Shown in pieces: positions 31,088 to 46,281 of a DNA stretch of 64,000 nt. Position 1 is the first letter of the stretch, and each line of letters opens with the position of its first letter. Made by a program: the position numbers and the translations under genes. Source of the DNA: Myxococcota bacterium (GTDB lineage: Bacteria; Myxococcota_A; Polyangia; Nannocystales; Nannocystaceae); assembly GCA_039028615.1 (NCBI GenBank), contig JBCCHT010000027.1, forward strand, positions 128,001 to 192,000, given 5' to 3'. The notes below the pieces were generated by a model. The model was given only the letters and a program-made list of their open reading frames with translations, was not told where the DNA came from and searched no databases.

Positions 31088-31251
31088 CGCGTCACTTCGA
31101 CGCGTGCATTCGTCATGAACCGCTCCGCGCAGACTCATCGCCACCATCATGTGGTGATCGTGCATTCGATGCACGATATCTGCCCGTGTTGAGCGGTTCC
31201 CGGCGTTTGTACCCAACTTGATGGACTTCGCCGGGCCTCTCGGCACGGGCG
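31088..31251 (+). promoter_or_regulatory. Structured leader with alternative helices (attenuator-like)
   Basis: 31117-25 pairs with 31191-99, versus 31181-93 with 31239-51 plus 31199-205 with 31229-35. Confidence 0.6.
31115..31192 (+). CDS. Putative His-rich leader peptide MNRSAQTHRHHHVVIVHSMHDICPC
   Basis: Manual translation: 6 His and 1 Asp in 25 aa, upstream of tRNA-Asp/His; shares its stop-context motif with 44469..44564. Confidence 0.6.
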   Translation: MNRSAQTHRHHHVVIVHSMHDICPC

Positions 31252-31313: not shown

Positions 31314-31385
31314 GGGGTCGTGGCGCAGTGGTAGCGCACCCGGTTGTCAGCCGGAAGGTCGCGGGTTCGAATCCCGTCGGCCCCG
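31314..31385 (+). tRNA. tRNA-Asp(GUC), atypical
   Basis: Cloverleaf GGGGTCG/CGGCCCC, loop TT-GTC-AG, TTCGAAT, G73; C27-A43 mismatch; followed by CCG. Confidence 0.88.
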
Positions 31386-31447
31386 CCGAGTCGTTGTCTG
31401 TCGACTCTCACCATCTTCTTACTCAACCACTCAACGACAAACACATC

Positions 31448-31519
31448 ATGAACAACATCGAGCAATCCAACGGCGAGGACGACTCGACCCATCATCCGAT
31501 GGCGGGTGTAGCTCAGTAG
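31448..31519 (+). other. Spacer mini-ORF MNNIEQSNGEDDSTHHPMAGVAQ running into tRNA-His
   Basis: Starts in the ACATCATGAACA motif shared with spacers of the minus-strand array. Confidence 0.35.
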
Positions 31520-31577
31520 GTAGAGTGCCGGAATGTGACTCCGGTGGGCGCCGGTTCGAGCCCGGCCACTCGCCCCA
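31501..31577 (+). tRNA. tRNA-His(GUG)
   Basis: Cloverleaf with G-1:C73, loop AT-GTG-AC, encoded CCA. Confidence 0.92.
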
Positions 31578-40535: not shown

Positions 40536-41510
40536 TCACGCCCCCGCTGCACACAGCGACGCGTAGCGCACCTCGTCGCCGCGCCGGGCGACCTGACCGG
40601 CCAGCTCGGGACTGGCGACCGTGGTCAGGACGATGCGAGCACGCCAACGACCGAGCTGGTCGTCGACCGCCCCCTGGCTGAGGACCAGTCCGGCGAGACG
40701 CCGCACGACCGCCTCCACGTCGGCGCGCTCGCGCGACGTCGCTTCGGCGAGCGCTGCCTCTAGGCCCTCGAGGCGGTCGTCGATCACCCGTAGCGGCCGA
40801 GCGACGGACGCACGCTCACCGAGCGCCCGTGCGACCTCGATCGCGAGCGAGCCGTAGCAGACCCGCACCAGGGGCTCCCACACGTGACGCCAGAAGGCCT
40901 GGTTGGGCGCCAGCTCGACCCCCACCACCCGACCACCGATGAGGATGATCGCGCCACGCTGATCGGGGACCAACTCGAACTCGGCGACGAACTCGTCGAG
41001 TTGCTTGGCGAAGTGACGGAGGAAGTACTCGAGGTGTCCACCGCCGCCCCCCGTGGACGCGCCCAGCCGGGTGTTGAAGCGCGTGATGTCGGGCCACAGC
41101 TTGTCGTAGCCCGTCTCGTTGCGCATCGCGAGCGCACGGCCACGCAGGGCAGCGGGGAGCACCACCATCGGATGCTTGTCTCGCCCGATGTAGCCCCCCT
41201 GCGACTGCTGAATGCAACGCGCAGTGTCGATCTTGACCGACTGCCCCGCCCGCATCAGCTTGCCGCTGCCGATCGCGTGATCCTGCGCCGCTTGCCGGAC
41301 CACCCACCCCGCGCCCGGAGGCACGATGGTGGGACGGTCGTCGTCGTTGCGCAGATCGACGGTACCGTAGTGACTCGTGCCGACCTCGACGTGGGGCGGG
41401 GCGAACGTCTCGTCGTCCTCGCCGAGCAGAGGGATCACCTCCATCACGCCGACGCTCTGACGTCGACCCGTTCGGGTTCCACGCAGGATGTCTTCAACGG
41501 TGAGTCTCAT
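40536..41510 (-). CDS. ARPP/DUF6569-like domain protein (324 aa)
   Basis: Starts MRLTVEDIL with an ATGA overlap to the upstream gene; QDHA, CIQQSQGG, FELVPDQRGAIILIGG; family recalled from memory. Confidence 0.55.
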   Translation of the reverse strand: MRLTVEDILRGTRTGRRQSVGVMEVIPLLGEDDETFAPPHVEVGTSHYGTVDLRNDDDRPTIVPPGAGWVVRQAAQDHAIGSGKLMRAGQSVKIDTARCIQQSQGGYIGRDKHPMVVLPAALRGRALAMRNETGYDKLWPDITRFNTRLGASTGGGGGHLEYFLRHFAKQLDEFVAEFELVPDQRGAIILIGGRVVGVELAPNQAFWRHVWEPLVRVCYGSLAIEVARALGERASVARPLRVIDDRLEGLEAALAEATSRERADVEAVVRRLAGLVLSQGAVDDQLGRWRARIVLTTVASPELAGQVARRGDEVRYASLCAAGA

Positions 41511-43146: not shown

Positions 43147-43301
43147 GATCGTTCGCAAAAAGCAGCCCGGGCCAAGGTCGGGGCCAACTATGGGTTCCAG
43201 AACAGGAATCGAACCTGCCCTCTTCGTTTCCAACGAAGTGCGCTCCAAATGCGCCATCTGTAATGGCTCCAGAGTCCCCGAGCTACTCTTTGCGATCGAT
43301 C
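43147..43301 (-). ncRNA. tRNA-like cloverleaf (anticodon GGA, 43191-43263) enclosed in a 25-bp helix; candidate Y-RNA-like RNA
   Basis: Arms 43277-43301 and 43147-43171 pair with 3 G-U and 1 mismatch, and the G-U pairs work only on the minus strand. Inner D, anticodon and T arms plus CCA. Confidence 0.7.
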
Positions 43302-43311
43302 GTAGTTGTCG

Positions 43312-43341
43312 TGGAGACCCGAATTCAGCCTCGGGTCTCCA
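43312..43341. other. Perfect 11-bp spacer hairpin
   Basis: TGGAGACCCGA-N8-TCGGGTCTCCA. Confidence 0.7.
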
Positions 43342-43359
43342 GCAATTTTCATCGTTCTA

Positions 43360-43436
43360 TGGTGGGCGCGGCAGGATTTGCACCTGCGACCTCTCGGTTA
43401 TCAGCCGAGTGCTCCAACTCCCTGAGCTACGCGCCC
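43360..43436 (-). tRNA. tRNA-Ile(GAU), atypical T loop
   Basis: GGGCGCG/CGCGCCC, loop CT-GAT-AA, T loop TGCAAAT, A73, CCA. Confidence 0.88.
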
Positions 43437-43505: not shown

Positions 43506-43580
43506 TGGTACCGGGTGAGGGAGTCGAACCCCCAACCATCAGTGTGTAAAACTGCTGCTCTACCGTTGAGCCAACCCGGC
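43506..43580 (-). tRNA. tRNA-Val(UAC)
   Basis: GCCGGGT/ACCCGGT, loop TT-TAC-AC, A73, CCA; G27-A43 mismatch. Confidence 0.88.
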
Positions 43581-43632: not shown

Positions 43633-43707
43633 TGGAGGGCGGTGCGGGATTCGAACCCGCGATCTCCTGGGTTGCAGCCAGGCGCCTTGCCACTCGACCA
43701 ACCGCCC
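43633..43707 (-). tRNA. tRNA-Cys(GCA)
   Basis: GGGCGGT/ACCGCCC, loop CT-GCA-AC, U73, CCA. Confidence 0.92.
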
Positions 43708-43713
43708 TTGCGG

Positions 43714-43781
43714 CAGGTCGCCGGGGGATCGAACCCCGTCTCGTGGAGTTGGAGTCCACGGTCTCCTCCAGGAAGCGACCC
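43714..43781 (-). tRNA. tRNA-Trp(CCA)-like with reduced D arm (68 nt)
   Basis: GGGTCGC/GCGACCT, 6-bp anticodon stem, loop CT-CCA-AC, intact T arm, G73. Confidence 0.7.
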
Positions 43782-43862
43782 ATACGAACCGAAGTACGTA
43801 CAACATCGCCAGGAGCGACCGAGGATGTGAAGTGGTTGGATCATCGTCCTCGTCCTTTTCGG

Positions 43863-43935
43863 TGGACCGGGTGGGAGTCGAACCCACGACCTTCTGCGTG
43901 CAAGGCAGTTGCTCTCCCAGCTGAGCTACCGGCCC
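43863..43935 (-). tRNA. tRNA-Ala(UGC)
   Basis: G3:U70 identity pair, loop CT-TGC-AC, A73; A27-A43 mismatch. Confidence 0.92.
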
Positions 43936-44400: not shown

Positions 44401-44597
44401 GTCGCGGGGGCTATGCCCTCGAGCGTCCCGATGCTCGTCGTATGAATGGATTCACACCGGGAGAACGCTCAACACGCGACAATCTCGCCCGCAAGGCGGA
44501 CGAGCGACCACAAGGCGGCGGCCTGGGCCGACGCTGGGGTCGAGATGTTCGTGAAACGTTCCATGGCGTGAACTCGTCGATCGCCCTTTGCAGGGCG
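44401..44597 (-). promoter_or_regulatory. Structured leader with alternative helices, same architecture as 31088-31251
   Basis: Start-region GAACGTTT pairs with GAGCGTTC, versus TTGAGCG/CGCTCGA, TCCCGGTG/CATCGGGA and GTCGCG/CGCGAC. Confidence 0.6.
44469..44564 (-). CDS. Putative leader peptide MERFTNISTPASAQAAALWSLVRLAGEIVAC
   Basis: Manual translation; ends I-x-x-C-TGA like leader 1; contains every amino acid represented in the downstream array. Confidence 0.55.
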   Translation of the reverse strand: MERFTNISTPASAQAAALWSLVRLAGEIVAC

Positions 44598-44604
44598 TTT
44601 GAGA

Positions 44605-44632
44605 GATGTACACGAGATTTTTGAGTCGTCAA
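44605..44632 (-). promoter_or_regulatory. Putative sigma70 promoter of the tRNA array
   Basis: TTGACG-N16-TACATC with an upstream A9 tract (44646-54). Confidence 0.5.
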
Positions 44633-45660: not shown

Positions 45661-46281
45661 GTGAGACACGAACGCCTCGACCCGACCGATGACACCTCCG
45701 CCACCGAGGTGTCCGACGTGCTCGCTCGCGCGTTCCAGAACGACGAGTTCTTCGTGCGTGCGTACGGGAACCCAAGCAACCGTACGCGAGCGCTTCGCGT
45801 GCTCTTCCGCGGGCTCGTCAGGCTGCACCTACCGCTGAACGCCTGCTTCGCAGCGTACGACGGAGATCAGATCGTGGGCGCCAGCTTCTGGGCACCGTGC
45901 TCGTTTCACGCGGGATTCCTCGACAGCATCCGAGCGGGCATGGGCGGGCTGTTCCGGTATCCGATCTCACTGCTCCGCCTCATGCGCTGCGACGACCTTT
46001 ACATCGGCGAGATGCAGCGCCGCGCGACGCCTGAGGCCCACTACCTCAACAGCATCGGCGTGCTCCCTGAACACCAGGGACGCGGCATCGGCAGTGCAAT
46101 GCTGCGACACCAGCTCGAGGCCCTCGTCGATCCCACGGGCCTCGATGCGTGGCTGTGGACCAACAACGACCTCAACGAGCGACTCTATGGTCGCTTCGGC
46201 TTCGAGGTCGTGCACCGGGAGTCAATCCCCCCTCCTCGACCATTCACGGCCCGGCTGATGCACCGCGCTTTGGCGCGTTGA
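45661..46281 (+). CDS. GNAT family N-acetyltransferase
   Basis: YLNSIGVLPEHQGRGIGSAML; NERLYGRFGF. Confidence 0.88.
   Translation: MRHERLDPTDDTSATEVSDVLARAFQNDEFFVRAYGNPSNRTRALRVLFRGLVRLHLPLNACFAAYDGDQIVGASFWAPCSFHAGFLDSIRAGMGGLFRYPISLLRLMRCDDLYIGEMQRRATPEAHYLNSIGVLPEHQGRGIGSAMLRHQLEALVDPTGLDAWLWTNNDLNERLYGRFGFEVVHRESIPPPRPFTARLMHRALAR

Follow-up and report, generated by a model that had tools for sequence, protein, structure and literature searches.

Control by leader peptides that respond to several amino acids at once is known from the multivalent attenuators of the thr, ilvGMEDA, his and trp operons, and Rho-dependent control through a leader is known from tnaC and mgtL. With regard to tRNA genes, T-boxes are found ahead of those of clostridia, and the spare trn operon of Anabaena is reportedly under the DNA-binding repressor TrcR. 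This operon is induced by impaired translation or translational stress, as described in the main text of PMC8421152, where the regulation of single tRNA species in bacteria is called largely unknown and the strings 'leader' and 'attenuat' have 0 occurrences. The available part of PMC2965389 makes no mention of tRNA genes, and no account of leader-peptide control of tRNA genes was found in the open-access literature.

The locus described here lies in a window of 64,000 nt, i.e. the whole stretch of DNA that was analysed, and its features are collected in Table 1. A short ORF stands between a promoter-like site and a block of tRNA genes, which were called by ARAGORN on the same strand in the order Ser(CGA), Ala(TGC), Trp(CCA), Cys(GCA), Val(TAC), Ile(GAT) and Ser(GGA), with five of the seven calls passing the Rfam cut-off. 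A strict sigma-70 consensus scan returned 0 sites at the promoter-like site. A short strong hairpin was also seen on the minus strand between tRNA-Ile and the final tRNA-like element (43290-43345), and an ORF for a GNAT acetyltransferase (45691-46281, plus strand) lies on the other side of the leader promoter.

Table 1. Position of the leader, the spare tRNA block and neighbouring or paralogous features in the window.
Feature	Position	Strand	Remarks
Paralogous leader, 25 codons, His x6	31115..31192	+	same stop-codon hairpin
tRNA-Asp, behind His x6 leader	31314-31387	+	
tRNA-His, behind His x6 leader	31502-31577	+	
ARPP-1 domain ORF	40536..41507	-	PF20208, E 2e-27; start approximate
Ro60/TROVE-like ring protein with vWA domain, 538 aa	41507..43123	-	67 nt behind array
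tRNA-like element, GGA in loop	43191..43263	-	short variable loop, mismatched acceptor stem
tRNA-Ile(GAT)	43360..43436	-	ARAGORN
Mini-ORF, 19 codons	43427..43486	-	4 Met, 1 Ile; stop inside 5' end of tRNA-Ile
tRNA-Val(TAC)	43506..43580	-	ARAGORN
tRNA-Cys(GCA)	43633..43707	-	ARAGORN
tRNA-Trp(CCA)	43712..43781	-	divergent D arm; under Rfam cut-off
Mini-ORF, Shine-Dalgarno-like site	43782..43844	-	1 Trp and 2 Cys codons, then enters tRNA-Trp
tRNA-Ala(TGC), spare copy	43861..43935	-	ARAGORN
Mini-ORF, 11 codons	43968..44003	-	3 Ala near end; stop 32 nt 5' of tRNA-Ala
tRNA-like element, CGA in anticodon loop	44144..44275	-	short variable loop, about 57 nt D-loop insert
Long hairpin, last codon + stop within 5' arm	44401..44480	-	core 44472-44419; no U-tract after; RNA folding
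Leader ORF, 31 codons + TGA	44469..44564	-	Ala/Val/Ile-rich, one Trp; M-x-R start, Cys-TGA end
Promoter-like site	44605..44632	-	-35 at 44632-44627 (TTGAC at 44632), 16 nt, -10-like 44610-44605

In the original prediction, the leader was taken to mirror every specificity of its array. The ORF 44564-44469 is real and does contain, as counted there, three Ser codons (all TCG), one Phe, seven Ala, one Trp, one Cys, two Val and two Ile, that is 17 of 31, and it is free of His and Asp codons. Several of the supposed matches had to be given up, however. There is no tRNA-Phe among the ARAGORN calls of the array, and the Phe codon falls in an N-terminus common to the leader family. Both 'Ser' calls are odd tRNA-like elements with a short variable loop (0.39-0.42 identity to other Ser calls), the CGA one not being a normal tRNA-Ser, and the use of TCG in all three Ser codons, read as cognate to the CGA element, is unremarkable given its share of Ser codons in long ORFs (39%), in GC-matched short ORFs (48%) and in the other leaders of the family (50/114). 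The terminal Cys also ends leaders of arrays without tRNA-Cys, as a family motif, and is best read as an RNA constraint because the last codon and the stop sit in the 5' arm of a conserved hairpin. The single Trp and single Cys codons would confer weak sensitivity.

TCG and Ala, both named in the caution that accompanied the prediction, are common. When 5,831 ATG ORFs of the same genome, matched for GC and 28-34 codons long, served as controls, the claimed residue set (17/31) gave p = 0.080 for its fraction and p = 0.0099 for fraction plus presence of all residues, whereas the fraction of Ala/Trp/Cys/Val/Ile gave p = 0.014 and that of Ala/Trp/Val/Ile, with the first five and the last residue dropped, p = 0.0026. 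The leader is thus better than such ORFs, but only modestly on the claimed set and on Ala/Trp/Cys/Val/Ile, and its codon match taken singly is modest.

When the 60 tRNA units of the genome were screened for a promoter-like motif followed by a short ATG ORF ending 5' of a tRNA, nine were picked, eight of which are heads of spare arrays at scattered chromosomal sites (Pro2; Thr-Phe-Asn-Lys2; Asp-His, also in the window; the 44564-44469 array; Ser4-Tyr; Met-Phe; Arg-Leu; Cys-Gln). The ninth, ahead of a housekeeping Gly tRNA, is a probable false pick and was retained in the assignment test. Together the eight arrays cover 18 amino acids, and no leader-headed spare unit for Gly or Glu was found in this genome. 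For each of the 27 array tRNAs, the anticodon recurs in at least one of 59 other calls, some of which may be false, and identity to the best isoacceptor is only 39-75%. This redundancy to a housekeeping set is that of the L-arrays (Anabaena trn type), although an L-array is one long array for most amino acids and the array studied here, with five tRNAs and two tRNA-like elements, is one of eight separate units. The trn operon itself, in the main text of PMC8421152, resembles the present case in having a divergent supernumerary set beside the housekeeping set and an association with genes of RNA-repair type, but it is a single long repressor-controlled operon, in contrast to eight small amino-acid-specific units with leaders.

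The nine leaders, with their first five and last residues removed, were then scored against the nine arrays in all 362,880 possible assignments, giving an exact p = 5.5e-6 for the match of each to its own array. Six of the nine leaders scored best on their own array. The leader 44564-44469 scored 0.21 on its own array and 0 or less on the others, and three other leaders scored 0.13-0.34 on the 44564-44469 array, whose residues are common. A genome-wide pattern search (promoter plus M-x-R...Cys-stop ORF) produced four matches, all ahead of spare arrays.

The same rule, applied to 193 tRNA units, picked 68 unique leader/array pairs, four probable false picks being retained; the motifs or the model that led to most of the pairs were themselves derived from the first pairs, and about one third of the arrays are cut by locus ends. 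The excess cognate fraction in these pairs was 0.188, compared to 0.008 ± 0.013 after shuffling, and 0 of 20,000 shuffles reached it. Residue fractions in leaders of arrays with and without the respective tRNA were 0.112 and 0.021 for Met, 0.119 and 0.017 for His, 0.074 and 0.005 for Lys, 0.175 and 0.067 for Val, 0.067 and 0.026 for Ile, and 0.044 and 0.009 for Trp (n = 3); Ala enrichment across arrays was not significant (0.181 and 0.121, p = 0.07). None of 20,000 shuffles reached the match when only homologous Cys-ending leaders were used (n = 45), one leader per cluster gave a median z of 11.3 (43 clusters) or 9.4 (31 clusters), and shuffles confined within clusters of related leaders gave p = 0.00025 (n = 35). 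Asp-Cys arrays are preceded by Asp/Cys leaders; in several members, a long leader ahead of a single Asp or Thr tRNA matches poorly. The expectation that the composition of homologues should follow array content was therefore clearly borne out, within this genome as well as over the 68 pairs.

Where C- and U-ending codons compete, the U-ending form was found 109:46 in cognate codons vs. 76:123 in non-cognate ones (p = 2e-9), in a genome with 8-22% U-ending forms. This bias implies that selection acts on the codons, as is expected by theory for regulatory codons (PMC1183508, in the part available). The interiors of the leader peptides are not conserved, only their ends. As judged from these comparisons, leader codons are evidently under selection to fit the amino acids of their own block, in U-ending forms. 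An agreement between the order of cognate codons and that of the tRNAs was considered and rejected, as the mean rho of 0.30 (19/26 positive) became -0.19 (8/20) without Thr. What stands of the predicted multi-amino-acid sensor is a ribosome sensor tied to its array, by comparative evidence, without the Ser/TCG, Phe and Cys details, and we consider it very probable that the leaders are codon-matched sensors. The sequence itself would then name the input of each tRNA block (the amino acid, the codons and the hairpin concerned), and from its leader one could tell what signal an odd tRNA array answers to.

Conserved in 25 leaders are a -35 TTGAC and a TA-led -10 (the -35 and TA columns at 90% or more), the start, and at the end TGY TGA GC with a GG-G core behind it. 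The hairpins formed by this end fold with a median z of -3.2 in the family, 22 of 25 being below -1.5, and the window copy has z = -1.44. Long-range pairing of the stop region was seen in 39 of 45 leaders, where 20.3 would be expected. The 5' arm is near-invariant, partly fixed by the search pattern, and the pairing evidence thus comes without covariation; RNAalifold on a MAFFT alignment gave no consensus structure. With the 5' arm and stop region masked, no consistent alternative fold was shared among members, and a small inner hairpin is possible in the 3' arm in several of them.

From these features we infer a leader switch with the following translation, stalling, sign and output. The ORF 44564-44469 would be a cis-acting ribosome sensor heading the spare tRNA block. 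If charged tRNA for Ala, Val, Ile or Trp ran short, the ribosome would stall in the leader and the hairpin would stay shut, whereas a ribosome arriving at the leader stop would open it. The state of the hairpin would set the fate of the precursor RNA, either through RNase III or E, which would cleave or degrade it, or through access of RNase P. The mini-ORFs would be a second check, tRNA by tRNA: a ribosome reading the cognate codons freely would enter the tRNA and block its folding, and one stalled on the mini-ORF would halt just before the cloverleaf and so spare the tRNA. In this way, the cell would probably restrict synthesis of a spare tRNA to times when its ribosomes lack that tRNA. We favour by a small degree this whole scheme, in which stalling keeps the hairpin shut and the precursor survives to be matured, with the mini-ORFs repeating the test for each tRNA; its output step is the least sure. 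Once a sensor is granted, there is a good likelihood that stalling raises array output.

The spacers were analysed for such mini-ORFs. In a relative locus, L097, similar ones are found ahead of tRNA-Ala and of tRNA-Trp/Cys. Spacer ATG ORFs had an excess of codons for the amino acid carried by the tRNA group that follows (0.067 vs. 0.005, 0 of 20,000 shuffles, n = 94 after removal of four probable false picks), and this enrichment was detected in this genome alone with p = 0.012 (n = 15). Cognate codons made up 99/439 at positions -3 to -11 before the tRNA vs. 27/312 at -12 to -20. As a raw count with no chance expectation to set against it, 80 of the 94 ORFs enter the tRNA. Pairing against the acceptor upstream of the tRNA gave no clear signal (5/63 first and 10/107 internal tRNAs vs. 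5/52 housekeeping ones). Masking the stop changed the acceptor-stem score from 0.24 to 0.17, with a drop in 6/59 and a rise in 4/59, as calculated by a program that often misses the cloverleaf.

With classical attenuators the unit has in common a short, presumably translated ORF between promoter and genes and an enrichment in cognate codons; an intrinsic U-tract terminator before the genes was not found. The profile of the Rho RNA-binding domain found Rho in 0 of 73 genomes of the taxonomic family, and not in this genome, while the same model finds it in three of four other genomes of the class, used as a control; the domain was likewise not found in G100, a genome discussed below. A Rho-dependent leader model was rejected on this result, and the C-rich, rut-like skew of the spacers is weak. 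RNase E/G and RNase III are present in this genome, in which an RNase J family model (one genome, one model) had no match, so that shielding from RNase J was also rejected; no Rfam T-box match was obtained for a T-box riboswitch. The leader unit is not a classical attenuator, given that the search for a U-tract terminator found none and that 73/73 family genomes are without Rho. For the same two reasons, a post-transcriptional fate of the precursor is the most likely output, with about an even chance of being right if a sensor is granted.

Rather unlikely, in our view, is the same sensor with premature termination at the U-poor hairpin as its output, assisted by a factor other than Rho, for which NusA and NusG are candidates. 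Speaking for it are the promoter-leader-hairpin-genes layout, which is that of attenuators, the small inner hairpin that can form in the 3' arm of several members when the 5' arm is masked, and the U-poor hairpins in which several spare arrays also end. Nevertheless, U-rich tails after the best hairpin are frequent at housekeeping tRNA-unit ends (14/42 on a strict count, more if U in the stem is allowed) and rare in leaders (5/52), T5 runs occur in only 3/64 leader spacers, and no terminator-like site was found on the minus strand of the window. Termination would also leave the mini-ORFs inside the array unexplained. In cells that have neither of the usual outputs, there must be an unknown route of termination or else a maturation of tRNA under translational control.

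Our preferred scheme of stalling and precursor maturation is similar in its working to the multivalent leader-peptide attenuators, with their multi-amino-acid leaders (PMC1183508, in the part available). In amino-acid operons the targets are enzymes, whereas tRNA genes are the target in the window; furthermore, the window family is devoid of a U-tract terminator and of a clear antiterminator/terminator pair, and adds a second tier of mini-ORFs inside the unit. Leader-peptide control, so far a matter of enzymes, would thereby come to include the supply of tRNA, on a cellular chromosome. The scheme is like tnaC and mgtL in that a ribosome at or near the stop controls a structure and there is no intrinsic terminator, but differs from them in that Rho was not found here in 73/73 family genomes.

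The sign of the response might also be the reverse, the ribosome at the stop opening an inhibitory hairpin so that spare tRNAs are made in plenty (growth on prey) and withheld in starvation. The sole conserved structure is the one that the ribosome breaks at the stop, and extra tRNA during amino-acid starvation lowers charging, both of which speak for this reading; a backup under stress, by contrast, fits with the link to a Ro60-like gene and with the large tRNA array of G100, which is accompanied by genes of RNA-repair type. The induction of the Anabaena spare arrays by impaired translation, described in the main text of PMC8421152, also opposes a reversed sign, which we regard as improbable.

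Units related to the preferred stalling sensor are present in genomes of the same genus and the same family. A model built from 25 leaders matched 31 of the 73 family genomes at E<1e-4, a patchy distribution, with tRNAs downstream in 29 of the 31 (8/17 genera; one of the misses is at a contig end). Beyond the family, 151 class and 151 phylum genomes yielded weak matches only, all without tRNAs (none at 24 loci from the class search and none at 5 from the phylum search). When metagenomes were scanned for the two ends of the leader, at least 120 loci came up; of 122 matches examined, 22 were in-frame short ORFs, and tRNAs lay within 700 nt in 17 of these 22 vs. 0 of 100 out-of-frame matches, 40 loci having flanks of only 300 nt. 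In L097, a homologous leader heads a Thr-Asp-Ala-Trp-Cys-Val-Ile-Met-Met-His-Phe array, of which the window array looks like a trimmed version; the window leader has few Thr codons and the window array no tRNA-Thr.

In IMG/VR, two of four matches are in-frame leaders ahead of Thr/Asp/Val/Ile/Met arrays; the two records measure 213 and 83 kb, are 40% and 16% complete, and owe their viral label to IMG/VR. One of the two carries a 10-codon Lys-rich ORF ahead of four Lys tRNAs. On the large viral record (L296, G666:183000-199500), tRNA blocks are interleaved with ORFs labelled by eye as a macro-domain protein, a metallo-beta-lactamase-fold nuclease and a release-factor homologue. The presence of this leader family on two large viral records, the low identity of the spare tRNAs to other isoacceptor calls and the patchy distribution would suit leaders that are non-regulating relics from large phages, or whose peptides act in trans. 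This is very improbable, as among related leaders of a cluster the composition changes when the array gains or loses tRNAs, peptide interiors are not conserved, synonymous codon choice is selected, and all eight units have been retained although scattered over the chromosome. That the leader is by chance a GC-rich ORF with common residues is hardly credible, despite p = 0.08 for 17/31 and the abundance of TCG and Ala, as it is contradicted by the 68-pair and within-cluster shuffles, the metagenome frames, the genome pattern search and the homologous leader of L097.

A wider extension of the preferred scheme is offered tentatively, and we hold it to be doubtful as a whole: in this Rho-less family, a near-complete second tRNA set would form eight amino-acid-specific feedback units, in which ribosomes, and not RNA polymerase, would decide on precursor maturation tRNA by tRNA through a master leader with a stop-codon hairpin and through mini-ORFs, a design that would have been exchanged with very large viruses.

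The gene behind the array encodes a 538 aa protein with no Pfam match. Its AlphaFold model has a pLDDT of 87.7 (a single-sequence model with pLDDT 37.8 was set aside), and the best 12 Foldseek matches listed were all Ro60/TROVE (best E 5.6e-8, TM 0.48); according to this model, the predicted fold of the protein is that of Ro60. This family of Ro60-fold proteins without Pfam match has 386 homologues and is paired with ARPP-1; those named from Haliangium and Minicystis point to Myxococcota, and the myxobacterial family concerned is probably of Nannocystaceae type; a distant paralogue lies elsewhere in the genome (G000:C25:142793-143548, L045). No Ro60-like gene was found among the downstream ORFs listed for the other seven arrays. 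In G100, a 54% homologue follows an array of 30-plus tRNAs with a similar CGA element bearing a D-loop insert, and no leader was found for that array. The odd CGA element therefore probably came with the Ro60-like module, and in the two distant genomes it is possibly an undescribed Ro-associated RNA. The G100 array (L078 and L032, G100:C15) shows more than 30 tRNA calls between the end of a TROVE-like ORF, an HNH-like ORF (labels by eye) and the Ro60-like/ARPP-1 pair; its CGA-loop element lies at about 1085-1201 of L032, close to the Ro60-like gene, and combines a short variable loop with a long insert in the D loop.

YrlA Y RNAs are likewise tRNA-like RNAs beside a Ro60-like gene on the same strand (PMC4201824, in the part available), although here the likeness is at the fold level only. 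Their hallmarks, the GNCGAAN0-1G motif and a permuted T/acceptor/D order (PMC4201824, same part), are absent from the window elements, which have the normal D-anticodon-T order and no Rfam Y RNA match, and a YrlA identity of the two odd elements was rejected for these reasons.

Other unusual arrays were seen in the loci collected. Long tandem Arg/Gly/Ala/Trp/Cys and Leu/Tyr arrays in DNA of lower GC (L271/L029, G006:C39, and L217 1-764) had no leader picked by the rule of promoter plus short ORF. Behind Met-rich leaders, ten and at least seven tRNAs with a CAT anticodon were detected in L265 (G310:C45) and L270 (G311:C68), respectively. The first tRNA of L048, L223 and L266 was called Thr(AGT), an anticodon that is rare in bacteria, and L015 has an Ile(AAT) call as well.
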